This document shows positions 7,797 to 46,687 of a stretch of DNA of 64,000 bases, one piece after another. A program made the position numbers and the translations under genes. The stretch is from an uncultured Candidatus Saccharibacteria bacterium (GTDB taxonomy: Bacteria > Patescibacteriota > Saccharimonadia > Saccharimonadales > EFPC-124), in assembly GCA_964550035.1 (NCBI GenBank), contig CAZJVU010000003.1, forward strand, positions 65,383-129,382, in the 5' to 3' direction. The notes below the pieces were generated by a model. It did no database searches. It worked only from the letters and a program-made list of their open reading frames with translations, and was not told where the DNA came from. How positions within the stretch are numbered: position 1 is the first letter of the stretch; each line of letters opens with the position of its first letter.

Positions 7797-7974
7797 AAAG
7801 TAAGTGTCTTTTACTTCTGGTTCCAATATATAGTAGTTTCAAGGATTATTCAGGCTGTTTCTTATAGGCTCCCTCCTTTGGTTGGTTTGTTTGTAAGTAA
7901 TACTGTAGGCTTTGTAGCTGAGCGATGGCTGAGCAATAGCATCAAATGTTAATTTCGCAACAATTGCAGCTGCC

Positions 7975-8877
7975 TCAGATCTCGAGGAGCTGCTGGAACT
8001 CATGCGGGTCTCCATAGTGATAGATGAGCTTATCGAGCAAATGCGCAATCGGGTATTCTTCGAGCCGCACCACATGAGGCAGCTCCTGCAAGGTAAAAAG
8101 TCCTTCACTCTGGACGTTTGTATCTGCGATTCGCTCCACGATGCTTCGACCCACGCGGTAGTTAAACGAGTTATCGCCAGTCCCAGCCGCCACAAGGTCG
8201 CCCAAACCGGCGAGGCTCTCAGCAGTTTCCGGCGTAACATTCAGATCGTGCAGAATGCGCTTCATCTCACGCAGAATCATAACGACCAAGCGTCCGCGCG
8301 CGTTGGCGCCGAGCTTGAGTCCATCGCACATGCCAAACGCAATGGCGTAGACATTCTTCAACACGCCACTCACGGCAGTGGCATGCATGTCACTGGAGAT
8401 TTCTAAGAAGACGCGCGCCTTGGCAAAGATGTCGCGAACCGTATTGTCGTAGTCTACTTCCGACAGAGCCAAAATCCCCGAACCCATCTGATGCGCAATG
8501 AGCTCACTTGCGGTCATAGGACCATAGATAAGCCCGTACGGCACACCATGTGGGAGCGTCTCGGCCAGGACGTGGTCGATAGTGACGAAACCTTTCTCAA
8601 CACCCTTGCTGAATGAGATCACCAGCGGTGGGTTCTGCGGGTCGAGGTGTTTCGCTATCTCTTTGGCAACCTCGCGATTGGCCCAGGATGGCACGCAGAT
8701 GAGAAGCACACTGCATGCGACGACAACGTCACGAATGCTCGCGGTCGTCGTGCGGCTGTCCTCGCGGTCGTAATACAGCACCTGCGAGCCAGCCTTCTCG
8801 AGCACGTGGCCAAGCGCCTGACCAAGCTCACCCGCACCAATAATGCCGATCTGGTCTGTTTTGGCTGCGTTCTCCAT
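7975..8877 (-). CDS. gpsA: NAD(P)H-dependent glycerol-3-phosphate dehydrogenase-like
   Basis: IGIIGAGELG Rossmann start, AGLGDLV...G.NSFNYRVG motif; ATG 8877 lies 2 nt after the ndh stop; the longer ORF to 8985 overlaps ndh. Confidence 0.75.
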   Translation of the reverse strand: MENAAKTDQIGIIGAGELGQALGHVLEKAGSQVLYYDREDSRTTTASIRDVVVACSVLLICVPSWANREVAKEIAKHLDPQNPPLVISFSKGVEKGFVTIDHVLAETLPHGVPYGLIYGPMTASELIAHQMGSGILALSEVDYDNTVRDIFAKARVFLEISSDMHATAVSGVLKNVYAIAFGMCDGLKLGANARGRLVVMILREMKRILHDLNVTPETAESLAGLGDLVAAGTGDNSFNYRVGRSIVERIADTNVQSEGLFTLQELPHVVRLEEYPIAHLLDKLIYHYGDPHEFQQLLEI

Positions 8878-8879: not shown

Positions 8880-10112
8880 CTACTCTTGCGTCTCCGCGTC
8901 GGTAGATTGGCCTTTTGCGCCACACACAGGGCATGATTCCTCGGTTTCGGCTTCCGCCAGGAAAAGCTCCGACGCCTTCCACCACGGCTCGACATCGTGA
9001 TAGCCTACCCAGTCAGCAGCCTCACGCAGCGCCCAACCGAGCCAGCCATAGATACGAATGCCACCCCAAAGGACTGCCGACCAGTGCTCGCCGGCCGGGT
9101 AGACGTAGATCGGGCGCTTTGGCCGATACACTTTTGGCACGCCGCCGTGAGCCAACCTGCGCAGGTTCTCCGCCAGGAAAACCGCGTCATGCAGCGCCGT
9201 CTGAGCCATACCGCTATATTCAGTCAGCGCATTGTCTCCAATGACGTAAATGTTCTCGGCTGGTTCGTTCTTGGCGCGGAGGAATTCATCCACCACAACC
9301 TTGCCGTGCTCCAGCGTAAAGCCGTTCTCGGCCAAAAACTTATTGCTCGACATACCCGCAGTCCAGATAACCGTGTGGCTCTTGAGCGGGCGACCATTGA
9401 CCATGAGCTCATCGGCAGTCTGCGCCTGCACGGTTTGACCGAGGTATAGCTTGATGCCTTGCTTTCGCAGATGGCGCGCAACGGCGGCCGACAGATCTTT
9501 TGGCATGCGCGGCAAAAGCCGTGGCGAGGCCTCGACAAGCTCGATATTGATCTTGCGCTCCTTCATGCCGTGATTCTTCATAATCCACCGCAAGTAGTGC
9601 GGCAATGCACCTGCCAGTTCGATACCAGTCGGACCACCACCCACAACGACGTAATTGAGGTCTGGCTTGTGCTGGTCGAGCATAAGTTTGTGAAGATGAG
9701 CTTTGAGTTCTTCGGCCTCTTCGATGGATTTGATGCCGTAACTATATTCGGGAAGGCCTTGGATACCGAAGTAATTAGTGATCGAGCCAAGAGCGACGAT
9801 CAAAATATCGTAGGGAATTTTCTTCTTCGAGGCCGTGACTACGACACTCCGTTCGCGGTCGAGTTTCTCGGCAGTTTCTTGGAGCAGCGTCACGCGCTTG
9901 TCTTGGAAAATCTCACTTAATGGGATGACGGACGCCGTCCGGCCCCCACCTGTCGCCGAGCGATACAGCGCCGGGTAATATTTGAAGTCGGTTTTGTCGC
10001 TCAGGAGTGTCACGTCGTACGCGTCAGAATCACTGAGATTAAGTGCTGTCTTGATGCCGCCGAACCCGCCACCGAGGATAAGGACTTGTTTTTTCTGTGC
10101 TTCAGATGCCAT
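8880..10112 (-). CDS. ndh: Type II NADH:quinone oxidoreductase (NDH-2)
   Basis: Two dinucleotide folds (VLILGGGFGG; VVVGGGPTGIELAG); 410 aa with a short Cys-containing C-terminal tail. Confidence 0.88.
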   Translation of the reverse strand: MASEAQKKQVLILGGGFGGIKTALNLSDSDAYDVTLLSDKTDFKYYPALYRSATGGGRTASVIPLSEIFQDKRVTLLQETAEKLDRERSVVVTASKKKIPYDILIVALGSITNYFGIQGLPEYSYGIKSIEEAEELKAHLHKLMLDQHKPDLNYVVVGGGPTGIELAGALPHYLRWIMKNHGMKERKINIELVEASPRLLPRMPKDLSAAVARHLRKQGIKLYLGQTVQAQTADELMVNGRPLKSHTVIWTAGMSSNKFLAENGFTLEHGKVVVDEFLRAKNEPAENIYVIGDNALTEYSGMAQTALHDAVFLAENLRRLAHGGVPKVYRPKRPIYVYPAGEHWSAVLWGGIRIYGWLGWALREAADWVGYHDVEPWWKASELFLAEAETEESCPVCGAKGQSTDAETQE

Positions 10113-13215: not shown

Positions 13216-13680
13216 ATGAAGAAGCTATTCATCTCGCTCTCAGTCATCGCCATGTTCGGCCTGTACGTGTGGCACGCTCGAACCGACCAAGACGCGGGTA
13301 AGGTCACTACAAAAGTAGCAGCCGCTAAGGACATGAACGCGCCATCAGCGTCCGCATCTACAACGATGCCCGCAACAGCCCAATCGACCTCGGCTCCGTA
13401 CAAAGATGGCTCGTACATCGGCAGTGCAGCTCGCTCCTATTACGGCAACGTCCAAGTCAGCGCCACTATCGGCGGCGGCAAGCTAACCGATATCGAGTTC
13501 CTGCAATACCCGCGCGACCACCGCGAATCGATGCAAATCAACGAGCAAGCCATGCCACTCCTCAAACAAGAAGCTATCAAGGCGCAAACCGCGCAGATTG
13601 ATGGCGTCAGCGGCGCGACTGACACCAGCGAAGCATTTATCGAATCGCTCAAATCAGCGCTCGATCAGGCCCGAAGCTAA
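13216..13680 (+). CDS. Exported FMN-binding domain protein (flavinylation substrate)
   Basis: N-terminal signal/anchor; FMN_bind domain with the flavinylation motif DGVSGATDTS. Confidence 0.85.
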   Translation: MKKLFISLSVIAMFGLYVWHARTDQDAGKVTTKVAAAKDMNAPSASASTTMPATAQSTSAPYKDGSYIGSAARSYYGNVQVSATIGGGKLTDIEFLQYPRDHRESMQINEQAMPLLKQEAIKAQTAQIDGVSGATDTSEAFIESLKSALDQARS

Positions 13681-25742: not shown

Positions 25743-26378
25743 ATGAACGTAACAAAGACCGCAAAGATTACCTTTGCACTAAGTATCAGCTACCTGGTCA
25801 TCCTGGCGCTGCTGCATATTATCAAGCCAGAAGTGACGCCATCATGGCAGACCCTGAGCATCTACGCTCGTGGCGACTGGGGTTGGATCGGCCAACTAGC
25901 CTACATCCTGCTTGGCCTGACGCACGTTGCGCTCTTTATGACCGTAAAGTCACAGGTGAAGAGTCTCGGCGGTAAGATTGGCCTCGGCTTCTTGCTCGTC
26001 GCCGGTTTGGGCGGAGTGCTCGGCGGCATCGGCGTGTCCGACCCTCTGAACACACCGCAGGCGCAGATGACGGCTAGCGGCACGCTGCACTCTATCGGTG
26101 CTGCACTCGAGATCTGGGGTGCACCGATTGCAGCATTGCTGATCAACATCAACATTCTACGCAAAAACGCCGACTGGAAACCATACCGCACCGCCCTGCT
26201 GTGGAGCGGACTGCTCCCAATCGTTGGGCTGGTACTGTTCATGGGTTCAGGCGCGAGCGCTGGCGAAAGTGTTGGCCCTGGCGACGTGATCGGCTACATG
26301 AACCGCGTTGCGATCCTAGCCTACATGGCATGGCAGATCACTATCGTTCACATCATGCTACGACAAGAAGACAAATAG
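25743..26378 (+). CDS. Polytopic membrane protein (DUF998-like)
   Basis: 211 aa, about 6 TM helices. Confidence 0.65.
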   Translation: MNVTKTAKITFALSISYLVILALLHIIKPEVTPSWQTLSIYARGDWGWIGQLAYILLGLTHVALFMTVKSQVKSLGGKIGLGFLLVAGLGGVLGGIGVSDPLNTPQAQMTASGTLHSIGAALEIWGAPIAALLININILRKNADWKPYRTALLWSGLLPIVGLVLFMGSGASAGESVGPGDVIGYMNRVAILAYMAWQITIVHIMLRQEDK

Positions 26379-26441
26379 CTCCTTTCAAAAAAGGAAGGCC
26401 GGCCCGTGTTGGGGCCGGCCTGTCCATCTGGGGCGTAGCGA

Positions 26442-26702
26442 TCAGTTGAACTCGACGTTCGTGAGCTCACCACCACGCCTGATGAGCTTGGAGGTCCAGC
26501 GGCAGTCGATCGTCTTCTCGAGCACGAACAGGTTGACCGCCGCGAGGCTGACGTTCTCGACGTTGATGATGACCGTCAACTTGCGGTTGTCCTGCGCGGA
26601 CGCCTTGGCGACCAGGAACCGTCGCCGGAGGTCGGCCATTTCGTCGGCGATCGGATGACCGATGCTGGCCAGGAACTGCTCACGTTCGCTCTTCTTGCTC
26701 AT
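26442..26702 (-). CDS. Hypothetical protein (GC-rich orphan)
   Basis: ATG 26702 with GAAGGG SD (alternative ATG 26717); hairpin ggccggccc/gggccggcc at 26399-26424. Confidence 0.5.
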   Translation of the reverse strand: MSKKSEREQFLASIGHPIADEMADLRRRFLVAKASAQDNRKLTVIINVENVSLAAVNLFVLEKTIDCRWTSKLIRRGGELTNVEFN

Positions 26703-27715: not shown

Positions 27716-28960
27716 ATGCGAATACGAACTATTATTCTTAGCCTACTAACTATCACGACACTTGTAGTGGGCACTATCGCACCAAGCGTATCTGCCCAAA
27801 CCGATACATGGGGAGATTATTCTCAGATGTTCAAACAGAGCGCCGGACAATTCTTTAGCGGTGCCGACTACGGTGGCCAATGGGGCTGGACGCCTCAAAG
27901 CAGTACTACCAGCGACATCTCATGGTCGCCAAATTATGCCGAGCGTTTTATCAAGTCTGACAATTGGGTACTGCTTGATGGCTACAACAATGGGCCGGGC
28001 ACCGCAATCACGCAAGTTCAACGAGTAACTTCTGAGCAAATGGGCGACGCCAACTGTAATGGTATGACCGACCTGCCTTCTGCAAATGGCATGCAGCATT
28101 ACGCGCAGTGGAACATTCCGGCCTCGGGTTACTGCCTGGATGCAACCGGTACAATTACCTCGCCTACCAACGGTACGACCGTGAACTTCCGCCACCGTCA
28201 GCAGTGGAGCCCGCCTGCGGCATGTTCAAACGCGACCTTTACAGGCAAGACATGCATCAGTCAGCACGAACAGTGGTGGGACGACAATGGCCACCCATAC
28301 GGTTTGCAGCTAGATCGTTCAGGTTCACTCGCGAAGGGTCTTGGCATGGCCTTTACGATCCAGCAGACATACCCAAGTGCCTGGAATGCTGAGGGCAAGT
28401 TCTATAATCTGTCACTGGACGGAACGACAGCCTGGAGTCCCAGCACGGGGGCTCACCAAATCTATGGCGAAATTGCTAAAAAATGGAAAGCAATGGGAGC
28501 ATTTAATGGCCCCCAAGGCTACCCTACTTCCGATGAAAGCAGTACGCCTAATGGCTCAGCTCGATACAACAACATGCAGAACGGTGGCATTTACTGGTCA
28601 ACCTCTACCGGAGCGCAGGCAGTTTATGGCGCCATCTACCAGAAGTGGGGCCAATACGGTTATGAAACAGGTATTTTAAAACTCCCGACCACAAGTGAAG
28701 CCTCGACTCCAGACGGCGTCGGCCGCTACAATCATTTTCAAGGCGAGAATGGCTCTATATACTGGACCCCTTCTACCGGGGCACACGTGATACAGGGGAT
28801 GATCAAGTCGCGTTGGGCTGCACTCGGCTGGGAGCGTTCCTACCTGGGTTACCCCACGAGCGATGAGTTTGCAATTTCTGGCGGCCGCCAATCAAACTTC
28901 CAGAACGGCTATATCACATACAATGCTGCGACAGGAAAAGTCACTGACTACCACAAATAG
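27716..28960 (+). CDS. Secreted protein with C-terminal LGFP repeats
   Basis: Signal peptide (MRIRTIILSLL...SVSAQ); 3-4 tandem LGFP-type repeats (G.LGYPTSDE...G.YW/ITY...TG); the extension to 27608 overlaps the tRNA. Confidence 0.8.
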   Translation: MRIRTIILSLLTITTLVVGTIAPSVSAQTDTWGDYSQMFKQSAGQFFSGADYGGQWGWTPQSSTTSDISWSPNYAERFIKSDNWVLLDGYNNGPGTAITQVQRVTSEQMGDANCNGMTDLPSANGMQHYAQWNIPASGYCLDATGTITSPTNGTTVNFRHRQQWSPPAACSNATFTGKTCISQHEQWWDDNGHPYGLQLDRSGSLAKGLGMAFTIQQTYPSAWNAEGKFYNLSLDGTTAWSPSTGAHQIYGEIAKKWKAMGAFNGPQGYPTSDESSTPNGSARYNNMQNGGIYWSTSTGAQAVYGAIYQKWGQYGYETGILKLPTTSEASTPDGVGRYNHFQGENGSIYWTPSTGAHVIQGMIKSRWAALGWERSYLGYPTSDEFAISGGRQSNFQNGYITYNAATGKVTDYHK

Positions 28961-29025
28961 CTACGGTTTCGATCCCCCTAGATACTTTTCAGCCAGGAGC
29001 ACCGCTCTAGCTTTTTGGACTACAG

Positions 29026-29055
29026 TACTATAATCGCCCAGGGGAGATTATAGTA
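29026..29055. promoter_or_regulatory. Perfect 10-bp inverted repeat overlapping a TATAAT box
   Basis: tactataatc-N10-gattatagta, ~30 nt upstream of ATG 29083. Confidence 0.5.
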
Positions 29056-29082
29056 CGTAAGCAATCCTTGGAGGTTACCAGG

Positions 29083-29736
29083 ATGGTTGATTTGCTCGCC
29101 TTGGCCGACTCACTTATGAAGGTCAGAGAGGTCAAAGACTTGTTGCTCCAGGAGCGGCTGGAGATAATGATCGAGTTTCTCAAAAAGGTTGGCGAAGTTC
29201 AAATAAAGACTGCCATCGACGAGCTACACGACTTGCCGCGCAGCACGCAACCGGAAAAAGAATGTGACCGTGCTATCGGCCACCTGAAGGTAGCGGCGAA
29301 CGCACTCGTCATGTCGCTTAAAAAGCGCCCACTTCTACGGCGCGCCGCAGGGTTCGATAAAAAGCGCACGATGCGAACCTATCGGCAAATTGCCGGCTGC
29401 TACCTGATAATCACCGTACTGTACCGATGCCAGCAAAATACGCAGCTGGCCGCAGAGTACGCTGACAGAACCCTAACGGCGTTCGAGGGGTGCGCCTCGA
29501 TCCGGACGCTCATGCTGTCGAGAGAATACGGGCTGCGGTTTACGTGCAATGGCGGTACCGATCAAGCGCCGACGATTGCCGTTATCGATTGCCCAGAACT
29601 CCGGACACTCATGGCGCGTTATAAACTTCCGGGGCTACCTGACGAAACGACTTTCGGCAGAATCGCGAACGCCCAAGTAAATGAAGAGCGTATGCGTTTG
29701 CTCGGCTGGCTCAATCAGCGCAAGCAACTCCCCTAG
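29083..29736 (+). CDS. Hypothetical protein (helical)
   Basis: ATG 29083 after GGAGG; hairpin ccccggatg/catccgggg at 29749-29785. Confidence 0.55.
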   Translation: MVDLLALADSLMKVREVKDLLLQERLEIMIEFLKKVGEVQIKTAIDELHDLPRSTQPEKECDRAIGHLKVAANALVMSLKKRPLLRRAAGFDKKRTMRTYRQIAGCYLIITVLYRCQQNTQLAAEYADRTLTAFEGCASIRTLMLSREYGLRFTCNGGTDQAPTIAVIDCPELRTLMARYKLPGLPDETTFGRIANAQVNEERMRLLGWLNQRKQLP

Positions 29737-29815
29737 CACCAGTGACCCCGGATGTCGCCGTGAACGAGCGGCATCCGGGGTCCGAATCCGAACAATTTGG
29801 AAGCTTTTGTGTTCG

Positions 29816-30877
29816 TTATCCGATAACCGCAGGGACAAGCGGATATGGAATCGACGAGCCAACAACCGGCGGCTCTTCGTACGCTCCGCGAGCTAGCCCT
29901 AGTCGCGCAATTCTGTTAATCATCTCCTCGTAACCTAAGCCAATGTTCAGCTCGCAGGCCTTCGGGAAGGAGCCGTATCCGCTGATGAGGCTCGGTAGCA
30001 AGTTGGCTTCGAGGAAATGCGCTTCACCAAACTCGTCTAGCCGAATGTCAATCCGCCCGTAGTCTTCCCCACCTAAAGCATGAAACACGCCAACAGCGAG
30101 GGCGCATATACGTGCCTTGAGTGCCTGGTCAGTTACCATGCTGACGACCTCTGTGTTTGATGATTTCACTTCTGCACTCAGAAGGCGTGACCCATTATCA
30201 TCCTGCGCGGCAACGAGTTCGAGTGGCATGGCTATATATTCAGCCGTTGGCTCGTCTTTGAGGATGGCCACGCTAAACTCGCGGCCGGATAAGTACTTCT
30301 CTATGAGTGCATCAGAATCGAGATCGGTAAAGATCGATGCTATTTTTGACTGCAACGCTGGGAAGTTACGCACAACCGAATTACTGTCTATACCCAAACC
30401 ACCGCCTCTATTCGTGGGCTTAACGAACAATGGATAATCAAATACTGAGTCTTCGGCAATTGGAGCCTCACCAACAGTCGCCACCATGTACTGCGATGTC
30501 TTCAGGCCTGATTCCAGCACGCGCCGCTTGGCACGTGGTTTATCCAGCTCGACATTGTGAGCTTCATGGCCGGAGCCCGTGTAGGCAATCCCGTGGCTGC
30601 GGAGGTAGTGAGCTAACCAGATTTTTTGAGGATCCTGCAGCCCCAAGTGTAGATTGCGCGGAATGAACTTCATGCCCAGAAACACCAGGTCTGGCTTTTT
30701 GCGAACCAGCTCAGCGAGATCATCCATGTCATTGACGATGGTGATGCCCACGCGTGTGTAGCGCTTTGTAAGGACAGCAAGAATAGCATCGCGCGACTCC
30801 TTGCTCATGGAGCTCAGACTGACGATGGTTGAGGAAACAATTTCAATATGCTTATCGATTTTCATTTTACTGGGCAC
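29816..30877 (-). CDS. ATP-grasp ligase, D-Ala-D-Ala ligase-like
   Basis: DYPLFVKPTNRGGGLGI..., EKYLSGREFSVAIL, GRIDIRLDEFGEAHFLEANLLPSL (Ddl-type C-terminal ATP-grasp); atypical N-terminus. Confidence 0.78.
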   Translation of the reverse strand: MPSKMKIDKHIEIVSSTIVSLSSMSKESRDAILAVLTKRYTRVGITIVNDMDDLAELVRKKPDLVFLGMKFIPRNLHLGLQDPQKIWLAHYLRSHGIAYTGSGHEAHNVELDKPRAKRRVLESGLKTSQYMVATVGEAPIAEDSVFDYPLFVKPTNRGGGLGIDSNSVVRNFPALQSKIASIFTDLDSDALIEKYLSGREFSVAILKDEPTAEYIAMPLELVAAQDDNGSRLLSAEVKSSNTEVVSMVTDQALKARICALAVGVFHALGGEDYGRIDIRLDEFGEAHFLEANLLPSLISGYGSFPKACELNIGLGYEEMINRIARLGLARGAYEEPPVVGSSIPYPLVPAVIG

Positions 30878-31096
30878 TCAGAGGTCGGCCGTGCGTTGGG
30901 TCGCTTCGGCTGCCTAAATTATTAGTTAGTATCTCAGCATTAATATTGTCTGACCGCGATACTAGGAAGCCGAAGAAGGGTTCGTAAAGATTACGGAGAG
31001 GTTATAGAAACCACATGAGTATCTTTAGTCTATCACAAAAAACACTATTATAATACTCCTACGTATTTATCAAGCGTGATTCGCTTGTCTCTAGAC

Positions 31097-32272
31097 TTAG
31101 CTATATATGTGCTCACGGGTGAGCGGAGCGTCGTTTTGCGGACCTTTTGTAAACACATACTGCGATAAATCGAGTTGCCCATATCGGAAGCTCGAAGCCG
31201 AACATGCGAGCCATGCATGCCACATACGATAAAACTTCTCATCAAACATCTTTTCGATTTGTGGTTTGTGCTGCTCGTAACGCCGCATCCATTCCTCCAA
31301 GGTCATGGCGTAGTGAATGCGAAGGTTTTCGTAATCGACCAGTCGGAAATTATGATTCGGGAGCGCTTTGACAATCTCTCGATTCGAAGGAATATAACCG
31401 CCCGGGAAAATGTACTTATCGATCCACGGGTCATTAGGCTGCTCGGTCTGCTGGGTTATGCTATGGAGCACGGAAAGGCCGTTCGGTTTTAAGAGTTGGT
31501 CAACCGCCTTGTAGTAGTTATAGTGATTGCCCTTGCCGACATGCTCGAACATGCCAACGCTGACGATACGGTCGAACTGCAGGCCGCGCTTTGGCAGGTC
31601 TTGGTAATTAGCGAGCTCGAAGGTGATCTTATCTGCCACGCCGGCCTTTTTGGCCATGGCGGTTGCGTAGGCGAGCTGTTCTTTACTGAGGGTGACACCG
31701 TGTCCAGTCACGCCATATTTTTTGGCAGTGGTTATGAGTAGCGTCCCCCACCCCGATCCAATATCCAGCAGGGTCTGTCCTTTGCTAAGTTGGAGCTTTT
31801 TCAGAATGTGCTGAACCTTTTGCTCCTGTGCGGTTTCCAAGGAATCCTTTGGCGTGCGGAAGTAAGCGCAGCTATACGTCATGCTCTTGTCGAGCCACAG
31901 TTTGTAAAAATCATTGCCAATATCGTAGTGATGGGCAATATATGAGCGCTGTTTCTTTGTGACATTTTTGCGAAGCCGTGTCAGCGATACGAGTTTGTTG
32001 AGCCCAGCAAATGCCTCCTGGTTTTCTGCCAAGAGCTGGACCGGACCTTCGAGGTCGCCCTCGACCTCGATAAGGCCTTCGGCGTACGACTCGCCAAACC
32101 CAAGCGATAGGTTTTTTAAAATTCGCCGAATAGCCTTGGGGCTTTTTATATGCAGGTGGTAGTAAGGTTTCTCTGGGCCAAACGTGCAGGTATCTCCGTC
32201 CCAGTAGGTTACGCGGACTCCCCCGTGTTTGATGTGTCCAAGGATTGCATTAAGGAGATTTTTTTCTATCAT
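31097..32272 (-). CDS. cfa: Cyclopropane-fatty-acyl-phospholipid synthase family methyltransferase
   Basis: CMAS family: SAM motif LLDIGSGWGTL, FDRIVSVGMFEHVG; start taken at MIEKNLL (32272). The in-frame extension to 32401 is judged non-coding. Confidence 0.88.
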   Translation of the reverse strand: MIEKNLLNAILGHIKHGGVRVTYWDGDTCTFGPEKPYYHLHIKSPKAIRRILKNLSLGFGESYAEGLIEVEGDLEGPVQLLAENQEAFAGLNKLVSLTRLRKNVTKKQRSYIAHHYDIGNDFYKLWLDKSMTYSCAYFRTPKDSLETAQEQKVQHILKKLQLSKGQTLLDIGSGWGTLLITTAKKYGVTGHGVTLSKEQLAYATAMAKKAGVADKITFELANYQDLPKRGLQFDRIVSVGMFEHVGKGNHYNYYKAVDQLLKPNGLSVLHSITQQTEQPNDPWIDKYIFPGGYIPSNREIVKALPNHNFRLVDYENLRIHYAMTLEEWMRRYEQHKPQIEKMFDEKFYRMWHAWLACSASSFRYGQLDLSQYVFTKGPQNDAPLTREHIYS

Positions 32273-32454
32273 ACTGAAATCATACTGCAAATGGGCACTC
32301 TGCGTCACTCCCGCCTGAGCTTGTCGACAGCTTGCAGCACTTCGCCAGGTCGGTCGGGTGCGCTCAGCCGTAAAGTCCGTCACCAGCACCAGACAGAGCA
32401 TCTGCCCGCCAGACTAGCAGTTTGGGCTAATGGTTCGAGGTCTTTTCTTGCGCT

Positions 32455-32509
32455 TATCGTTTCGTCCTTGACGGGACTCATCAGAATGACGAACAAGTCA
32501 TTGACGATA
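32455..32509 (-). ncRNA. Type III hammerhead self-cleaving ribozyme
   Basis: Minus strand: UAUCGUC|AAUGAC-UUGUUC-GUCAUU-CUGAUGA-GUCC-CGUCAA-GGAC-GAA-ACGAUA. Complete conserved core, three stems, GUC cleavage triplet. Confidence 0.88.
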
Positions 32510-32519
32510 GTCAGCCCGG

Positions 32520-32552
32520 GGGTGACCTGCGGCACAGGCCGGCAGGTCACCC
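32520..32552 (-). terminator. GC-rich hairpin 3' of gene 32559-32900
   Basis: gggtgacctgc / gcaggtcaccc, 11-bp stem; 10 nt upstream (in RNA sense) of the hammerhead. Confidence 0.6.
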
Positions 32553-32558
32553 TTTTCA

Positions 32559-32900
32559 TCATGCGAACTTCCGCAGGGCTTTGGCCATCTCTTTGTCCAT
32601 CGTGGACTCCGAGTTGGTCAGCTTCTCGATGAGAGCCGCCCAGGCCAAGGGGTCGCGGGTGGAACCCAGAGTGGCGTGGCGAAGCGCCATCTCCATGTCG
32701 GCGGCGGAAGCGCTTCTGGTGCGGCTAGAGAGCGCCTTAGCGAAGGCCTCGAACTGGGCCTTGCAGGCGAGAAGTTCTCCCCCGACCTCGAAGTCGAGAT
32801 TGATGTCCTCGCACCGCTGGCACAGCTCCTTCAGCTGCAGCATGCCCGCCGAAGCCTTCAGGCCGCGGGCGAAGAGGCTGAGCAGAGTGACGTCGGTCAT
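32559..32900 (-). CDS. Hypothetical helical protein (GC-rich orphan)
   Basis: 113 aa; own TTGACT-17-TATAAT promoter; AAAGG SD. Confidence 0.55.
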   Translation of the reverse strand: MTDVTLLSLFARGLKASAGMLQLKELCQRCEDINLDFEVGGELLACKAQFEAFAKALSSRTRSASAADMEMALRHATLGSTRDPLAWAALIEKLTNSESTMDKEMAKALRKFA

Positions 32901-32975
32901 GAGACACTACCTTTCACATGATTGGGCTGTTAAGGTGTACCCAGGAAAAGTGTTACTACCCCGAATACAACGAAT

Positions 32976-33004
32976 ATTATATCATTTCTAAGTAAATAAG
33001 TCAA
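32976..33004 (-). promoter_or_regulatory. Sigma70-type promoter for 32559-32900
   Basis: Minus strand TTGACT-17 nt-TATAAT (extended TGaTATAAT). Confidence 0.6.
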
Positions 33005-33143
33005 GTATATATAACCGGAATAGACTCTCTTCGATTGCCCCAAGCTCTCTGTGTGGATCGCCTTGGCCTAAAGGGCATATGCGCACCTGACGTAACTCGA
33101 GTACCCTGAGCAAAAAGCTAGTAGTGTTCCTGTCGTGTAAGTA

Positions 33144-33800
33144 CTACCGCGTCAAACCTAGCGTCAGGCCATCTACAGCTCGAAGAACCTCATCTGTACT
33201 CACGCGTGCGTGGTTGAGCCCATCACCGGAATAGTAACTCTCGTGCGGATTATCACCGGTCATACGGGGGAGAGCCGCCCACTCCTGAGCAAGATTGGCC
33301 GCGAACTCCTCACGAGTGATCTTGCGCTGCACAAACGCATGCGAACCGCGCCGGTCGATGAGTGCGCGAGCCAAGCGGTCTTGCAGCGCGGGGTCAAATG
33401 TCGCGTGTGGGCTGATGCTTAGCTGCTTTACGAGCCCCGCAAGCGTCGTGCCCATGAACTGATATCGTCCGACTGCGTTGCTCGCATTTCCCTGGCGGAT
33501 ATACTCTTGCTGCCACTGCATAACCTCCGCAACAGTCATGCGCGTAAACGGCACCTCTGAGCTAGCGGTGCGGCCAAAATATGCGTTGTAGTTGCCGCCG
33601 CTCTCGCCTTTGGCAATGGTATCGAGAAGCGGCTGGTAGGCGGATGCGTCAATCATTGGTCGTGTTCCTTGTAGTGTGATTATAAAGACAATACAGGCCG
33701 CGACGGTCAGCCCTAGAATGCGGCGTTTTCTGCGGGTGAGTTTCCGCCACACGCGCTTTGCTTTTTTGTAGAGTAGTCGTACACGCTTTTCCATAGCCAA
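33144..33800 (-). CDS. Membrane-anchored lambda-lysozyme-like (GH104-type) muramidase/lytic transglycosylase
   Basis: N-terminal Arg/Lys-rich segment plus TM; AKGESGGNYNA (catalytic Glu context) and VGRYQF motif as in phage lambda R. Confidence 0.7.
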   Translation of the reverse strand: MAMEKRVRLLYKKAKRVWRKLTRRKRRILGLTVAACIVFIITLQGTRPMIDASAYQPLLDTIAKGESGGNYNAYFGRTASSEVPFTRMTVAEVMQWQQEYIRQGNASNAVGRYQFMGTTLAGLVKQLSISPHATFDPALQDRLARALIDRRGSHAFVQRKITREEFAANLAQEWAALPRMTGDNPHESYYSGDGLNHARVSTDEVLRAVDGLTLGLTR

Positions 33801-33847
33801 CCACTAGCTTAGCAAGAAGTACGAGGTGTCGCCATGATGTTTATAAA

Positions 33848-33876
33848 TTGACATAATAATATTTTAATGCTACAGT
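33848..33876 (+). promoter_or_regulatory. Sigma70-type promoter for 33913-34164
   Basis: TTGACA-17 nt-TACAGT followed by ATATAT. Confidence 0.6.
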
Positions 33877-33912
33877 ATATATCAAGCTGAACTACTCACC
33901 GAGGAGAGCATC

Positions 33913-34164
33913 ATGAGCGGTTTCAAGGTGGTCAACACCACCCGCAAGGGCAACCTGGTCGCGCTCGAGCTCCGGCACGACGGCCAGATCCCGACGATCG
34001 TGCGGGAGCACCTGCGCGGGCACGACGACGTCCTGCGCGTGGTTCCGGGCAACAACCCCACCAAGCTCTTCGTCCTCACGGCCGTCTCCGGCCACGCGAG
34101 GAACAACGAGCAGCGAGCGGCGTTCGTCGACAGCCTCAGCCAGACGGCCAACGCCGCGGCGTAA
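33913..34164 (+). CDS. Hypothetical protein (GC-rich orphan)
   Basis: 83 aa; GAGGAGAG SD; imperfect long GC hairpin downstream. Confidence 0.5.
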   Translation: MSGFKVVNTTRKGNLVALELRHDGQIPTIVREHLRGHDDVLRVVPGNNPTKLFVLTAVSGHARNNEQRAAFVDSLSQTANAAA

Positions 34165-34280
34165 CAGCCTCGCGCCCCAGCACACGGAAAGCTCCGTGCC
34201 TGCGGGCGCGGGGCTTTTCTCATCTAGTATCCCAATGAAGCGTCCCGGCCAGTTACCCGGCCGGGGTCGCTCCTGTATGC

Positions 34281-34721
34281 TCAGTAGATGTACTTGAAGG
34301 TGATGGCTGGCGCCGTTCGGGATGCAACGCGGTTCCAGCCGCTCTGGCCATCCATCTCGGTGATGATCACGAGGGCGTAGTCGATAGTGACGTCTTCGAC
34401 GATGGCAACTTGACCGTTCGTACCGCGATCGGTCCAGGCGATAGCGCCCTTTCGAGGCGCATCGCCAACTGCGTAGCCGGATTGCTGAGCGCGGTCGTAC
34501 CAGTACCTGGCGTCGCCCCAATTGGGCGGCACCTTCCGGCGCGATGCGACGTAGTAGGTACCAGAGCCGTACTCGTAGCCGTTGGCAGCATCGGAGCCCA
34601 CCGTCGTCGTGGTCGATGGGGCATTTGTGGTTGGCTGTACCCCCGAAGGTTGCGCCGAACATGCGGGTACGACCAGAACAAGTGCGACCATGCACCGTAA
34701 GAACAAACGTTTCGCCCTCAT
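34281..34721 (-). CDS. Lipoprotein with CHAP-like domain lacking the catalytic Cys and His
   Basis: Lipobox LVVPAC|S. CHAP-like layout: YGSGTYYVASRR (expected GQCTWYV) ... P.KGAIAW...NGQVAIVEDV (expected GHVAIVE). Confidence 0.65.
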   Translation of the reverse strand: MRAKRLFLRCMVALVLVVPACSAQPSGVQPTTNAPSTTTTVGSDAANGYEYGSGTYYVASRRKVPPNWGDARYWYDRAQQSGYAVGDAPRKGAIAWTDRGTNGQVAIVEDVTIDYALVIITEMDGQSGWNRVASRTAPAITFKYIY

Positions 34722-34896
34722 TACACCATCCTCACGTAGCGGAAACAGGAGCGTCACTTATTATACCGCCCATCACAACAAGGCAGCTATCATAAGTCTA
34801 TGCGCAACGGCGCGCTTGCATGCGTCACCTCCTATAACAGTACATGCAAATAGGGGCCCGAAATTCGAGCCCCTATTTGCATTATCGTTTTACTTT

Positions 34897-35499
34897 TTAA
34901 ATTTCGATCGTACCGATCTTGATGTCACCATTGCGTGCATAGCGATTCATGGTTACGCCACTTGGCGTTACGGTGCTTTGGGTTAGCTTGAATGCGACAG
35001 GCAATGTGCCTTCACCGAACAAACGCTTGCCCGAACCCAGCGTTACTGGAATGATCTTGAGCCATACTTCGTCGACCAAGTCATTCTGAAGAAGCATCTG
35101 CACAAGCTTGCTACTACCCCAAACCTGCAGGTCGGCGCCTTCTGTCTGCTTGAGCGCTTTAATTTGCTCCAGAACGTCATCGCCGGTAATCACCTTCGTA
35201 TTCTTCCAAGTGAACTCTTCTGGCTTGCTCGAAACAACGTATTTCATTCCATCGTTAATGCCCGGCCAAAATTCAGGGTGCTGAGGCCAGTAGCCGGCAA
35301 AGATCTCGTATGTCTTGTAACCCAAGAGGTAGTCCGATGGAGCGAGCTCTTTTGCGAACTCTTCGTTAAAGACGTCATCACCGAATGATCCAGCCCAACC
35401 GCCGTATTTGAAGCCACCCGAAGTGTCTTCTTTCGGACCGCCAGGGCCTTGCATGACACCGTCGAGTGAGACTGTTGTAGTTACGATTATTTTTCTCAT
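34897..35499 (-). CDS. Dihydrofolate reductase-family protein (RibD C-terminal domain), paralog 2
   Basis: MRKIIVTTTVSLDGVMQGPGGP...; 200 aa; terminator gcaaataggggc/gcccctatttgc downstream. Confidence 0.82.
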   Translation of the reverse strand: MRKIIVTTTVSLDGVMQGPGGPKEDTSGGFKYGGWAGSFGDDVFNEEFAKELAPSDYLLGYKTYEIFAGYWPQHPEFWPGINDGMKYVVSSKPEEFTWKNTKVITGDDVLEQIKALKQTEGADLQVWGSSKLVQMLLQNDLVDEVWLKIIPVTLGSGKRLFGEGTLPVAFKLTQSTVTPSGVTMNRYARNGDIKIGTIEI

Positions 35500-35557
35500 A
35501 TTATAGTTTCCTTCCTTATCTTTATATTGCTACTATAGCGAACCGCGAAGTGTGGGT

Positions 35558-35576
35558 ATTGGATATTTTGGACAAT
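35558..35576. promoter_or_regulatory. Conserved 19-nt motif ATTGGATATTTTGGACAAT (copy 1)
   Basis: Identical 19-mer also at 38871-38889; both lie 58-60 nt upstream of paralogous DHFR-family genes. Confidence 0.55.
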
Positions 35577-35676
35577 TGCCTTCGTCACTTACTCGGCAGA
35601 ATTGTTGCATAAACGTTATAATATTTTATAATTATAGACAATCAGTTTGCCTGATTCCTCAACTTGGGAAGGTGAC

Positions 35677-36696
35677 ATGAAGCACCCGACGGTTTTGTTC
35701 TTGGACAACACGAGCGCTGACAACTTGGCGCTGGCGCTGGCGGCGACCCGGCCTTCGTCCTTGTTGGACGTGAAGGCTATTTTCGTCACGGGGCGTGCAG
35801 CGCACACCGACCCCAGTGCCTCGATCGAAGACCGAGAAGAAAACTTTTCCAACTACATCCACTTCCTCAACGCCGCGCGCATGCTGGAGTTCCTCCAGAG
35901 TGCCGGTCGCCCGGACATCCCCATCATCATGGGGCGGCGCGTGCAGCGAACCGGAATTCGTACCGTCATCCCCCACCACATCCACGCAGACGAGAAGATC
36001 TACGACCTGTGGGACTCCTGGGGCAAAGCCAGAATTCACGAGTTCGCTGACGGCGTCCAGTACCTTCGTCACCTCAAGGCGAAGAAGCTCCTCGCGCTCG
36101 TCGGCGGACCGCTCACCGAAGTGGCGTGGATCCTGCAGCACGCGCCCGACGTCGCAGCCAAGTTCGGCACGATGCTCATCCAGGGAGGCGACTTCGCCAC
36201 CGACGAGTCTAGCAACCTCATCGGCGGCAAGGGCAACTCGTTCAACATCGCGTGTGACCCGAAGGCGGCGAACGTCGCGCTGAAAATGCATCGTGGGAAA
36301 GCCATCTTCCTCCCGTCAAACATGACCAAGCAGCGCGAACTCGGCTTCGCCACGCCCGACGAGATCGCGGCGCTGGGGGTGTACCGCCGGCTCGTCGACG
36401 TCTACCGGGTGCACTACGAGCACTCCGCCAAGCGGCGGGGAACCTCGTTGTTCATCCACGACCTGGGGTTGGTCATGCTCGCCGAGCAGCTCATTCGACG
36501 CAAGCGAGGCTTCCCCTACCAGCTGGAGCCGATCATGGTCCTGGAGGTACCCTTCCAGGCGCCAAAACCCGGTCAGCCCGAACGTCGCGGCACGGTCGTG
36601 GTCAAGCCGGTGCGGGTCAGCACGAACCGTTTCAGGGTGGTGTGGCAAGACACAAGGGACTACCGCACCCGCGTGGCTGCGTATCTCCGAAGTTGA
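35677..36696 (+). CDS. Inosine-uridine nucleoside hydrolase-like protein with degenerate N-terminal Asp motif
   Basis: VLFLDNTSADNLALALA (versus DxDxxxDD), GGPLTEVAWILQHAPDV...MLIQGG, NFNIACDPKAANV, IHDLGLVM; SD GGGAAGGTGA before ATG 35677. Confidence 0.6.
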   Translation: MKHPTVLFLDNTSADNLALALAATRPSSLLDVKAIFVTGRAAHTDPSASIEDREENFSNYIHFLNAARMLEFLQSAGRPDIPIIMGRRVQRTGIRTVIPHHIHADEKIYDLWDSWGKARIHEFADGVQYLRHLKAKKLLALVGGPLTEVAWILQHAPDVAAKFGTMLIQGGDFATDESSNLIGGKGNSFNIACDPKAANVALKMHRGKAIFLPSNMTKQRELGFATPDEIAALGVYRRLVDVYRVHYEHSAKRRGTSLFIHDLGLVMLAEQLIRRKRGFPYQLEPIMVLEVPFQAPKPGQPERRGTVVVKPVRVSTNRFRVVWQDTRDYRTRVAAYLRS

Positions 36697-36700
36697 GGAA

Positions 36701-36742
36701 AGGCCCTCCCGTGGTTGCCATCGTGGCGACCCGGGAGGGCCT
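36701..36742 (+). terminator. GC-rich hairpin
   Basis: aggccctcccg / cgggagggcct, 11-bp stem followed by TTTTCCTTT. Confidence 0.65.
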
Positions 36743-36778
36743 TTTCCTTTCCTACAGAGGGTAGTGTGGGTAGTAGCG

Positions 36779-38197
36779 CTACTCGGCCATCATAGGTTCT
36801 GCTGCTGCCTTGCGCGGCATCAGGAACACGAACGGAAGGCTGACTACCGTGAGAGCCAGGACGACGATGAGAGCGATCTCCATCGCGCTGACAAATCCAG
36901 CGGTTGCGGCCTGGAAAAATACCGAGGCAACTGCAGCCGAACCAATTGCTGACGAAAGCTGCTGAATCGAGCTGAACGAACCGCTCGCGCTCCCCGCCTC
37001 GTCCGGCTTGGCGTCGCCCAGCGCGATGGTTGGAATCGCCGCAAACGAAAACCCAATACCGATACCGATGATAAAGAACACCGGCACCAGCGCCCAAAGG
37101 TTGAGGTGCATTCCAAAGGAAGCAACGAGCGCCAGCAGCCCAACACAGCCAATGATATTTATCCCGAGGCCGATGAACACGAGCTTGCGCCCGAGCTTGG
37201 TCACGAGACCACCCATCGCAGCAAACCCGGCAGCAACGAGGCCCAAAGTGAGCGGCATCATGCTCAGCGAGGTATCCCTTGCGTTAACATGCAGCCCTAC
37301 TTGCAGGAACAGCGACAGCACAAAGAGCAACCCCGCCCCCGCAGCAACCGCCACAAGACACACGACCAGACCAGAGGTAAACCCGCGGTTATGGAAGAGT
37401 GACGGCTTGATGAGTGGATGATCCGCAGTTCGTTGACGATACGCAAAGGCGATGAACGCCAGAAGCCCGATGATGATCGAAACGATCGGCACGGCGCTCC
37501 AGCCATTGGTCGAACCTTCGATCAAGCCATACAGCAGCCCGAACATCGTGACACCAAGGATGCCCGACGCCCAGCCATCGATAACGATGGAGCGATCGCC
37601 CTTATCATCGCGCGGCAAAAGCTTCACTGCCATGATTATTCCCACGACACCAAGCACGAGGTTGATGAGGAAGATCGGGCGCCATGTCAGCCCAAACCAA
37701 TTGGCGCTAATGATGAACCCGGCAATGACCGGGCCAAGCACGCTCGAGATACCGAGCATTGGGCCAAACAACCCGAACGCCTTACCGAGCATTTCCTTAT
37801 CGAATGCTTTTGTCATGATCGCCATACCTTGTGGAATGAGCAAGGCACCGAATGCACCCTGCGCAATGCGCGCCGCGATAAGCACCGCCGGGTCAGGCGA
37901 AAATCCTGCGACCGCTGAGGCGAGCGTGAAGCCGCCCATGCCCAGCAGGAACAGCTTGCGCTGACCAAATTTATCGCCGAGCCGTCCGCCGATAACCAGC
38001 AGAACACCCATAGCGAGCATGTATGCTGGGCCCAACCACTTGATCAAGCTCACGCCGCCGCCCAGGTCATGCGCAATAGTCGGCGCGGCGATGTTGGTAA
38101 TGGTGCTGTCGATGACATCCAGTGCGTCGGCCAGAATAACCAGCCCAAGGATCGCCCACAGCCGGGGCTTTGAAAGTTTGTTGATTACCTTTTCCAT
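36779..38197 (-). CDS. MFS transporter, DHA2 (EmrB/QacA-like, 14 TMS)
   Basis: 472 aa; motif A GGRLGDKFGQRK; about 14 hydrophobic spans. Confidence 0.88.
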   Translation of the reverse strand: MEKVINKLSKPRLWAILGLVILADALDVIDSTITNIAAPTIAHDLGGGVSLIKWLGPAYMLAMGVLLVIGGRLGDKFGQRKLFLLGMGGFTLASAVAGFSPDPAVLIAARIAQGAFGALLIPQGMAIMTKAFDKEMLGKAFGLFGPMLGISSVLGPVIAGFIISANWFGLTWRPIFLINLVLGVVGIIMAVKLLPRDDKGDRSIVIDGWASGILGVTMFGLLYGLIEGSTNGWSAVPIVSIIIGLLAFIAFAYRQRTADHPLIKPSLFHNRGFTSGLVVCLVAVAAGAGLLFVLSLFLQVGLHVNARDTSLSMMPLTLGLVAAGFAAMGGLVTKLGRKLVFIGLGINIIGCVGLLALVASFGMHLNLWALVPVFFIIGIGIGFSFAAIPTIALGDAKPDEAGSASGSFSSIQQLSSAIGSAAVASVFFQAATAGFVSAMEIALIVVLALTVVSLPFVFLMPRKAAAEPMMAE

Positions 38198-38890: not shown

Positions 38891-39565
38891 TTACGGTTTT
38901 TGCGGTACATCAAGGAGTTCCTTGGGAGTACGTCCAAAGAACTGCTTGGTTGCTCGGTTCAAATGAGCTTGGTCCACAAAACCAAGCTCAGCAGCAACAG
39001 TCGTTGCCGACCTACCCTGTTTGAGCAAGCTAAGCGCTTCATACACGCGTCGCAGCTGGTGAAGCTTGTGTGGCGATAAGCCGGTCGATCGCTTAATGAG
39101 TCGAGAATAACTTCGGGACGACAGTCCTTGTCGTGGCTGCTGCTCTGTATTGAGCGCTTTGCCAGTTATGAGTCCGAGGCTATGCATGTGCTCAATGAGC
39201 TGCTCGGCTTTTTTGAACTCCGGGAACTGCAACTGCACGCCCTCAAAAGTAAATTGCCCGCGCGCATCGGCAGGCAACGATAAGAAATGATTCGTAAACT
39301 GTGCAGTCGAAAAGTTTTTTACTTGCACGCCAGGCTGAAGCCTGATGGCCGTCACTGTCGTGCCAGGCAACAGGAGCTCATCACGCGGCCTGGTCTCTGG
39401 CCCCCTCAGAAAAACGCGTGAGTCTGTGGCACTTTGCGTCAGGATGATCGAAATGCAAGGATCAGCCAAGGCCGTGCGCGACATCACTTCTGTTGCGTTG
39501 CACGTCCAAATAGAAGCTATATACTCTAGCTCCGAAATACGCTCTTTCCAGGTGAGCTCGGTCAT
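38891..39565 (-). CDS. AraC-family transcriptional regulator
   Basis: C-terminal LGFVDQAHLNRATKQFFGRTPKEL; same strand as the DHFR-like and MFS genes. Confidence 0.85.
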   Translation of the reverse strand: MTELTWKERISELEYIASIWTCNATEVMSRTALADPCISIILTQSATDSRVFLRGPETRPRDELLLPGTTVTAIRLQPGVQVKNFSTAQFTNHFLSLPADARGQFTFEGVQLQFPEFKKAEQLIEHMHSLGLITGKALNTEQQPRQGLSSRSYSRLIKRSTGLSPHKLHQLRRVYEALSLLKQGRSATTVAAELGFVDQAHLNRATKQFFGRTPKELLDVPQKP

Positions 39566-46015: not shown

Positions 46016-46687
46016 ATGATCAAGCTGATTATCTTTGATTGGGACGATGTCTTCACGCAAAACTCTATCGCTGGCTACTACGCCTGCTACCGCGAAGCGC
46101 TGAAGGGTGTCGGCATCTCGCTCGGCACCGAGGAGGAAGACAAACGCATCAAGGCAAAGTGGGGCGCTGGCCATCGCGAGCAGCTCATCTATCTGCTGAA
46201 GGAACGCCCCGAACTTATCGACAAAGCAATCAAAATCTACGAAGAACATTTCTTTGGCAACACATTCGTTGACCGCCTTACCATTATTCCCGGTGCGCAA
46301 GAACTGCTGAAAAGCCTCGCCAAGAAATACACGCTCACTGTCGCGACCGGCGGTCACCCGCGCATTATAAAAGACCGCTTGTTTCCCAAATTCAACATCC
46401 CCGATGTCTTCGCGCAGGTCCTAACCATCTATGATATCGACGACCTAGCACATGCCAAGCCGCACCCTTACATGGCCAACAAAATCCTCGAAACGCAGCA
46501 TATCCAACCAACTGAAGCAGTGCTTGTCGGCGACGCCGCAAGCGACATGCAAATGGCCTGGAACGCTGGCGTCGAACCGATCGCCGTGCTCACAGGCCAC
46601 CTAGACCGCGCCCAGGCCGAAGCATTGGGCGTGAACCATATTATCGAGAACGTCACCCTCCTCGAGACAGAACTCGAGAAGTTCTAG
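46016..46687 (+). CDS. HAD-family hydrolase
   Basis: Motif I IIFDWDDVF; GDAASDMQMAWNAG (motif IV). Confidence 0.85.
   Translation: MIKLIIFDWDDVFTQNSIAGYYACYREALKGVGISLGTEEEDKRIKAKWGAGHREQLIYLLKERPELIDKAIKIYEEHFFGNTFVDRLTIIPGAQELLKSLAKKYTLTVATGGHPRIIKDRLFPKFNIPDVFAQVLTIYDIDDLAHAKPHPYMANKILETQHIQPTEAVLVGDAASDMQMAWNAGVEPIAVLTGHLDRAQAEALGVNHIIENVTLLETELEKF

Follow-up and report, generated by a model that had tools for sequence, protein, structure and literature searches.

What might a predicted self-cleaving RNA do between two bacterial genes? The question is raised by a stretch of 64,000 nucleotides from an uncultured Candidatus Saccharibacteria bacterium (contig CAZJVU010000003.1 of assembly GCA_964550035.1); this whole stretch is referred to as the window. 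On its minus strand a type III hammerhead ribozyme (32510-32454) separates a small gene (32900-32559) from cfa (32272-31097), a gene of the cyclopropane-fatty-acyl-phospholipid synthase family. The full order on that strand is promoter, 113-aa gene, GC hairpin, type III hammerhead, 181-nt spacer and the cfa ATG at 32272. A first-pass annotation of the window gave this layout correctly to within a base, and took the two genes to share one transcript which the ribozyme would process.

We favor a different reading, with moderate confidence. The hammerhead would form the 3' end of a self-contained cassette with a single gene; the mRNA of this cassette would be trimmed by the ribozyme and clamped at its ends, and cfa would be a bystander. 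The ribozyme stays with the upstream gene while the downstream gene varies from locus to locus; therefore, the ribozyme is a 3'-end device of small-gene cassettes rather than a leader element of cfa.

Small-gene cassettes in different genomic neighborhoods

The small gene had been called an orphan, a label that has to be dropped. Eight relatives, with lengths of 111-140 aa and identities of 29-52%, came out of an exhaustive HMMER search through 1.84 billion cluster representatives, and a ninth was recovered through the DNA pattern of the ribozyme in a scan of Joint Genome Institute (JGI) metagenomes. The family is seen because the search was exhaustive; a word-indexed protein search missed all the relatives, returning the query itself only, and its profile version brought nothing further. 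The loci L082-L098 are the contigs encoding relatives of the small gene together with the hits of the metagenome scan made with a pattern of ribozyme stem I and core. With the window included there are ten distinct cassette loci. Nine of them bear a hammerhead: the window, L082, L083, L085, L086, L087/88, L089 (where the contig ends within the ribozyme), L090-95/98 and L097.

We observed the same series of elements in 9 of the 10 loci, namely the -35 and -10 boxes, a 5' stem-loop, the motif CAG(C/U)CC in the 5' untranslated region (UTR), the gene, the GC hairpin, the sequence (C)CGGGCUG and the hammerhead. Similarity between the loci spans the interval from the -35 box to the 3' strand of ribozyme stem III and then stops. 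The spacer between the hammerhead and cfa (32453-32273, minus strand) had been described as a 182-nt leader of cfa, to be compared among homologous loci. Such a spacer does exist, one base shorter (181 nt), but in the comparison with the other cassette loci it was conserved in none, similarity ending at the 3' end of the hammerhead, and the role of a cfa leader was not borne out.

The downstream neighbor of the cassette differs at every locus. In the window it is the co-oriented cfa; in L082 it is an unrelated co-oriented gene and in L097 a co-oriented Fic-family gene, whose ATGs are preceded by TATAAT at 7 nt and 12 nt, respectively. In four loci (L083, L085, L086 and L090) the downstream gene is convergent, lying only 4 nt past the ribozyme in L083. 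The cassette is thus a unit that occurs in different genomic neighborhoods, on contigs of Saccharibacteria type; in tblastx comparisons only L083 and L097, besides the window, share further genes with known Saccharibacteria loci. Genes of the Fic/DOC family were seen within 5 kb of the cassette at L083:7415-7798, L086:8776-9825 and L097:3608-4792 (directly downstream in the last case), and there was no match to this family among the eight neighboring open reading frames (ORFs) scanned around the window copy (29068-36696).

Some loci have a terminator beyond the ribozyme. A canonical one lies about 170 nt past the ribozyme in L091, and in L096 a bidirectional U-tract terminator follows the ribozyme directly. 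Therefore, the ribozyme would trim the transcript and is not the sole element able to end the RNA. The tenth locus, L084, has the same promoter, the same UTR motifs (CAGUCC and AAUCAUG) and the same gene, but the C-terminal helix of the protein is lost, and a terminator-like hairpin identified by eye (L084:5337-5420; A-tract, stem and U5, -12.3 kcal/mol) replaces both the GC hairpin and the hammerhead. This natural swap is consistent with a role of the replaced elements in making the 3' end.

The small gene is genuinely coding. AlphaFold, run on the small family alignment, produced a confident six-helix bundle (pLDDT score 85.8), and every member of the family shows coding periodicity as well as a high GC content of third codon positions (GC3) ranging from 0.73 to 0.86, with 0.84 for the window copy. 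The neighboring genes have GC3 of 0.56-0.70 and the loci overall have a GC content of 0.45-0.56. The raised GC3 of the cassette could come from foreign origin, from repeated transfer or from selection on mRNA structure. For the small protein no usable match came from Pfam, PADLOC or PHROGs, Foldseek comparisons with PDB and BFVD gave nothing better than E = 0.4, and neither family nor fold searches gave an indication of RNA binding.

The contig L096 carries a second cassette (L096:8340-9140, plus strand), in which an unrelated 153-aa gene has its own promoter, hairpin, 10-nt spacer and hammerhead. Its hammerhead shares stem I with the other cassettes; stem III is compensated, and stem II is enlarged by an insertion of about 90 nt. 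The unit sits in reverse orientation between rplK (7826-8254, minus strand) and nusG (9153-9695, minus strand), within the conserved secE-nusG-rplK-rplA cluster.

The variety of neighborhoods could also be expected if the cassette were a mobile or selfish unit, with the hammerhead serving its propagation, for instance in the processing of an RNA intermediate, and not the maturation of an mRNA. The insertion of a second small gene with hairpin and hammerhead (same stem I) in the nusG-rplK cluster of L096 would fit such a unit, as would a GC3 well over that of the surroundings in all loci, a neighborhood that is different in each species, and the insertion sequence (IS) and Fic genes near some loci. 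Still, no integrase, transposase or reverse transcriptase was consistently adjacent across the loci, no flanking direct repeats were seen, and each locus has a single copy with one ribozyme per unit, so that no excised or circular RNA is expected. The inverted repeat CAGCCC/GGGCTG, which we considered as the terminal repeats of a transposon, was rejected in this capacity since it lies inside the conserved unit and not at its ends. Scans of viral contigs with hammerhead patterns (two scans) had no matches, and neither had a distant blastn search of 32273-33010 against phage and plasmid records. On balance, we find a mobile unit improbable.

The ends of the message

Upstream of the small gene the first-pass annotation had placed a promoter at 33004-32976, and the promoter scan agrees, giving a sigma70-like site with 11 of 12 matches. 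The -35 box TTGACT (33004-32999) is separated by 17 nt from a TG-extended -10 box TATAAT (32981-32976), which makes a near-consensus promoter, and a -35 box with TTGAC together with a -10 box of the form TAnnAT is kept in 10 of 10 loci. Transcription is predicted to start at about 32971-32968, leaving a leader of about 69 nt before the small gene. The leader would begin with a stem-loop, GUAUUCGGGG...CCUGGGUAC (32968-32937, -12.3 kcal/mol). A stem-loop occupies the same place in every other locus with a different sequence (GUGCUC/GAGCAC, GUGUUC/GAAUAC, GUUCUC/GAGAGC and others). The Shine-Dalgarno sequence (SD) of the small gene is AAGG at 32913-32910.

Past the stop codon lies the GC hairpin (32552-32520; 33 nt), which had been noted as a stem of 11 bp lacking a U-tract. 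This description is accurate, and the full structure also has a bulge, 3 more bp and a 4-nt loop, with a folding energy of -26.9 kcal/mol (z = -6.1). Downstream of the window hairpin the sequence is CCGGGCUGAC, with no run of T; (C)CGGGCUG is present in all loci and a U-tract in none. Judged as an intrinsic terminator, the hairpin at 32552-32520 has the GC stem but not the U-tract, and the scan called no terminator on the minus strand. In an alignment of seven hairpin sequences 99% of the cells were paired, and 3 of the 14 pairs had compensatory changes. In L089 and L090 other hairpins take its place.

The distance of 10 nt that had been given from the hairpin to the hammerhead is exact if counted to the first pair of stem III; it is 9 nt if counted to the start of the Rfam match. 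The hammerhead was identified from the match to RF00008 and from a direct reading of its core. Stem III (6 bp) pairs 32509-32504 with 32460-32455, and is followed by the cleavage triplet GUC, with the cut predicted after C32503 (C17). Stem I (6 bp) pairs 32502-32497 with 32490-32485; then come the canonical core segment CUGAUGA (32484-32478), stem II with 4 bp (32477-32474 with 32467-32464) and the canonical GAA (32463-32461). The A15.1-U16.1 pair corresponds to A32460 with U32504, and the NUH triplet is GUC. As in a hammerhead of type III, stem III (5-8 bp) is the open one, stems I and II each ending in a loop.

The window copy scored 39.2 bits against RF00008, with E = 1.1e-6 in a local search and 5.9e-5 in a search of the whole window. 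At the Rfam gathering cut-off of 48.5 bits it goes unreported, and with reporting by E-value it is the sole ribozyme match in the window. Seven further copies scored from 33.9 to 45.7 bits (E = 7e-7 to 2e-3). We found the core identical in all nine hammerhead-bearing loci, with the predicted cut site uniformly 14-17 nt past the hairpin. Over 28 pairs the mean DNA identity of the hammerhead was 92%, compared to 58% for the coding sequence, and the differences in the hammerhead lay in the two loops. A formal count of pairs detected no significant covariation in the hammerhead stems because the stems do not vary. The related copy in L096 has UGCGU/ACGCA in stem III in place of AUCGU/ACGAU, a compensatory change.

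A public gene call places a 60-aa ORF (32562-32380, minus strand) over the hairpin and the hammerhead. We regard it as an artefact; its frame is not kept in L082.

The two ends of the message are predicted to pair with each other in two helices. In helix B the UTR motif CAGCCC (32929-32924), invariant as CAG(C/U)CC in 10 loci, pairs with GGGCUG in the linker behind the hairpin (32517-32512), which is invariant in all nine hammerhead-bearing loci. In helix A the UTR strand AUCAUGUGAA (32922-32913), which ends at the SD, pairs with UUCGCAUGAU (32567-32558), a strand made of the last two codons, the stop codon and one more base. Helix A, the GC hairpin as the middle arm and helix B would thus compose a three-way junction joining both ends of the message. 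Stem III of the hammerhead begins 0-2 nt past helix B (with an overlap of two bases in L090), and the predicted cleavage leaves a tail of 9-10 nt after the clamp.

When the 5' UTR was folded as a duplex with the 3' tail, helix B alone was only weakly better than shuffled sequences, and helix A gave the decisive signal. In the window the helix A duplex has an energy of -12.8 kcal/mol, a value reached by none of 1000 shuffles, and a pair probability of 0.9-0.99. The strands of helix A covary: the UTR strand and the 3' strand are AUCAUGUG and CGCAUGAU in the window, GAUCACACG and CGUGUGAUU in L086, and UAUCCACGG and CUGUGGAUA in L090, with further variants in L087 and L089. Energies of the cognate duplexes ranged from -9.8 to -15.9 kcal/mol; for each of them no more than 0.5% of shuffles were as stable. 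Duplexes formed across sequence classes had a mean of -9.2 kcal/mol. Among the 120 permutations of the five sequence classes the cognate assignment ranked first.

We also folded the predicted processed mRNAs of eight loci at full length (460-560 nt, from the estimated transcription start to C17). The helices measure 7-11 bp (helix A) and 6-9 bp (helix B), and both are present in the folds of the eight loci. Helix B appeared in the minimum free energy structure in eight of eight folds, with 6 of 6 pairs and a pair probability of 0.95-1.0. The pair probability of helix A was 0.85-1.0 in seven of the eight, and 0.36 in L087. For the second cassette of L096 no such clamp was predicted (pair probability 0.06).

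The position of helix A brings to mind a regulatory switch, in which ribosomes opening this helix, or the encoded protein binding the junction, would control the folding or cutting of the hammerhead and so tie translation to decay. On its UTR side helix A borders the SD, and on its other side it contains the stop codon; helix B abuts stem III, overlapping it by two bases in L090; some copies of the ribozyme have a competing fold; and for icaR and hbs pairing of the 5' and 3' UTRs was found to control translation or decay (PMC7821165, PMC5737220). On the other hand, we found no conserved alternative pairing that could serve as the off state, the competing fold rests on the variable loop 2 and differs between copies, and nothing points to binding of RNA by the encoded protein. 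We therefore judge a switch to be unlikely, though with some weight left to it.

The start of cfa

The cfa gene (minus strand, ATG at 32272) encodes a protein of 391 aa with a match to PF02353 (E = 3.8e-96) and one to DUF7884 that begins at residue 7. Among species-representative genomes the closest Cfa loci all belong to Candidatus Saccharibacteria, the best one (L002) with 73% aa identity, followed by Firmicutes with at most 46%. A hammerhead was present at none of 80 other cfa loci, about 11 of which are from Saccharibacteria.

According to the first-pass annotation, the region before cfa had neither a convincing promoter nor an SD. The second statement is right: there is no SD before the ATG at 32272, as would be fitting for a leaderless start. 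As to the first, the promoter scan identified a candidate, GTGACG-18-TATGAT (32308-32279, minus strand; 9 of 12 matches), with the TATGAT box ending 6 nt upstream of the ATG, and this arrangement recurs in orthologs. In the Saccharibacteria orthologs L002, L003 and L006 we see TATAAT or TATACT 6 nt before the start, and in L009 TACAAT at 7 nt; in L004 the box is at 9 nt, and in L007 the -10 box is followed by a short leader with an SD. A -10-like box at a distance of 5-8 nt precedes 1.5% of all ATGs in the window.

The same is seen in several other SD-less genes of the window, which have a -10 box 5-9 nt before the start: 1890-2312(-), 2328-2831(-), 2889-3305(+), 13216-13680(+), 38891-39565(-) and 46016-46687(+). 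Many other genes of the window carry GGAG or AGGA. These signals suggest a genome in which leaderless mRNAs are common, side by side with SD-bearing genes. None of the papers listed by a literature search aimed at leaderless mRNAs mentions them.

The start codon itself is set by comparison. The cfa orthologs all begin with M-x-E-K at the equivalent of 32272; therefore, the open frame that runs back to 32401 is noncoding. It had been foreseen that this frame could mislead gene callers, and it did: a public gene call has a 434-aa Cfa with a 43-aa N-terminal extension, which we rejected as an artefact given where the orthologs start.

Because the -10 box lies 6 nt before the ATG, because there is no SD, and because the same arrangement exists in orthologs and in other genes of the window, cfa probably has a leaderless mRNA transcribed from a -10 box of its own, with the start at about 32272, as a bystander to the cassette. 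In the bicistronic alternative of the first-pass annotation, the small gene and cfa are both transcribed from the promoter at 33004-32976, cfa depends on read-through, and the hammerhead splits the RNA into two messages with independent stabilities. Processing of polycistronic transcripts is the standard idea for ribozymes in the literature (PMC3088659; PMC6765202). In favor of such a transcript, the hairpin has no U-tract and no terminator-like site was called on the minus strand between the ribozyme and cfa; for the latter reason a read-through RNA into cfa may exist. The match of the cfa promoter is, besides, only 9 of 12.

What makes us consider the bicistronic arrangement doubtful at best is, first, that the ribozyme is tied to the upstream gene, with other genes downstream elsewhere, four of them convergent. 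The gene pair and the ribozyme between them are not conserved together, as the absence of hammerheads from the 80 other cfa loci indicates, and the spacer is not conserved either. The candidate -10 box at 6 nt, found at 6-7 nt in four orthologs against the background of 1.5%, would give cfa a start of its own. Finally, cfa is unlikely to depend on the upstream promoter: in a read-through RNA its AUG would be internal and lack an SD, and would be poorly translated from a long RNA in a genome that otherwise uses SDs. The proposal that the cut leaves the upstream mRNA with a protective hairpin fared better: the order of hairpin, linker and hammerhead is kept in nine of nine hammerhead-bearing loci, and it is the link to cfa that finds no support.

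Around the locus (window 28000-37000) the GC content swings gene by gene between about 0.38 and 0.70, within stretches of a few hundred bases. For the CHAP and nucleoside-hydrolase genes, for example, GC3 is 0.69-0.82, compared to 0.56-0.60 for cfa and RibD_C. These swings suggest a mosaic of genes from different sources. At 26363-26477 on the minus strand the window weakly matches the Moco/Tuco riboswitch aptamer (RF01055), with 25 bits against a cut-off of 36 and E = 0.12.

Proposed maturation of the message and its relation to known systems

For the cassette, the maturation of its mRNA could proceed as follows. RNA polymerase would pass through the hairpin, which has no U-tract. The 5' UTR would pair with both flanks of the hairpin, with the stop-codon region in helix A and with the linker in helix B, and so clamp the ends together. 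The hammerhead, 0-2 nt past helix B, would cut after GUC and shed the downstream RNA: in the window, the spacer with cfa; elsewhere, the antisense of convergent genes or a tail extending up to a distant terminator. The product would be compact, an mRNA of about 466 nt whose 5' end is structured and whose 3' end is clamped, with a 9-10 nt tail carrying a 2',3'-cyclic phosphate. The likely consequence is a defined, nuclease-resistant message and an insulation of the neighbors.

Several points weigh against this reading. What the comparison of loci shows is the anatomy of the cassette, its conservation, the covariation of the hairpin and of helix A, and the independence from the downstream gene; cleavage in the cell, an effect on stability and the point where cfa transcription begins are what we infer, and cleavage, transcript ends and transcription starts are all predicted from sequence. 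A part of the transcripts could stop at the hairpin. Helix A would be opened by each ribosome that terminates. Helix B has an invariant core, and its flanking pair is A-U or G-C in 7 of 9 loci, which is suggestive but no more than chance could give. The family is small, with 9-10 distinct loci, several on short contigs, and tblastx did not settle the taxonomy beyond the window, L083 and L097. The remaining points concern the ribozyme. All copies are under the Rfam gathering score. Stems I and II are invariant within the family and show no covariation, one pair of stem III alone being variable (U-A or C-G), and in L087 stem II has a C.A mismatch. For the window copy a competing fold is predicted to exceed the hammerhead fold in stability by about 4 kcal/mol, and in the full-length model of the window the hammerhead stems have a pair probability of about 0.03; the energy model leaves out the tertiary contacts of the hammerhead core.

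Taken to the extreme, the low scores, the lack of covariation in stems I and II and the more stable competing fold of the window copy would make the hammerhead an inactive relic or a chance resemblance, with the hairpin alone ending the transcript. We consider this very improbable. The motif is conserved at 92% over about 55 nt, next to a coding sequence with 58% DNA identity and 30-58% protein identity; all core positions are intact in nine loci and the variable positions are in loops; the related copy of L096 has compensatory changes in stem III; and the hairpin that would have to end the transcript lacks a U-tract at every locus.

Type II is the dominant type of hammerhead in bacteria. The window copy differs from typical bacterial hammerheads in being of type III and in standing alone, with one ribozyme per unit and no tandem array. 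Known bacterial hammerheads flank genes in polycistronic transcripts that are mostly associated with prophages (Perreault et al. 2011, PMC3088659; PMC6765202). The cassette ribozyme shares with them the genomic location, the canonical core, the place between genes on the sense strand and the proposed processing of mRNA into fragments of different stability (PMC3088659). Unlike the prophage copies, it had no phage context in searches of viral contigs, phage records and PHROGs; unlike other bacterial hammerheads, it is tied exclusively to the 3' end of one small-protein family, beside a conserved hairpin and the 5'-3' clamp.

Pairing between message ends has precedents. In Bacillus subtilis the hbs message has a 14-bp pairing of its 5' and 3' UTRs that protects it against RNase Y (PMC5737220), and long-range pairing of UTRs is known for icaR and RNAIII of Staphylococcus aureus (PMC7821165). 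As in hbs and icaR, the 5' UTR of the cassette is complementary to the 3' end of one short monocistronic message, near the ribosome-binding site, with a predicted effect on access of nucleases or on translation. Unlike in these messages, the 5' UTR would pair with both flanks of a hairpin to make a three-way junction, one strand of which includes the stop codon, and the 3' end would be made by a ribozyme, not by a terminator.

The glmS ribozyme is located in a 5' UTR, needs a metabolite as a cofactor and destabilises the coding fragment. The cassette would also have a self-cleaving RNA in a bacterial mRNA, producing a downstream fragment with a 5'-OH and changing the fate of the RNA. It differs in that the ribozyme follows the ORF and nothing indicates a ligand; the ORF would be on the upstream product, the one with the cyclic phosphate. 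Mammalian Clec2 genes carry hammerheads in 3' UTRs, and RiboJ is a synthetic ribozyme insulator. In both, as proposed for the cassette, a hammerhead acting in cis on an mRNA defines an end or insulates neighbors, and RiboJ also combines a hammerhead with a hairpin; those systems are, however, eukaryotic or engineered, and RiboJ has its hairpin downstream of the ribozyme and the whole unit in the 5' UTR. The Obelisks (bioRxiv 10.1101/2024.01.20.576352) likewise have a type III hammerhead beside a small uncharacterised ORF in bacteria-associated sequence. They are circular rod-folding RNAs of about 1 kb, unlike the cassette, which is chromosomal DNA with a sigma70-type promoter, a single ribozyme and a protein that was unrelated in all the searches run; on these grounds an Obelisk or viroid-like origin was rejected.

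What appears to be new is a gene-specific 3' hammerhead found together with a covarying 5'-3' clamp. In our literature search we found no paper that joins hammerheads with Saccharibacteria or with Patescibacteria, the candidate phyla radiation (CPR). Standard annotation misses the ribozyme because every copy is under the Rfam threshold; in its place gene callers give a false ORF of 60 aa that runs across it, and a Cfa with an extended N-terminus. In practical terms, the position of the ribozyme next to cfa is incidental.

Most hammerheads of bacterial genomes have no known function (PMC6765202). A hammerhead that is tied to one protein family, at a fixed 3' position and with a covarying clamp, leads to concrete, falsifiable predictions on the purpose of the cut, and this in the Saccharibacteria, which are understudied, with some members now genetically manipulable (PMC10633639). 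We suggest, as a tentative idea that may well fail, that the cassette is portable within the Saccharibacteria and produces a previously undescribed kind of message, closed by a covarying three-way junction and matured by a hammerhead stacked on it. If this is true, the ribozyme would have a defined job in the cell, the making of a clamped 3' terminus that ends in a cyclic phosphate, and this job may also couple the termination of translation to re-initiation or decay.

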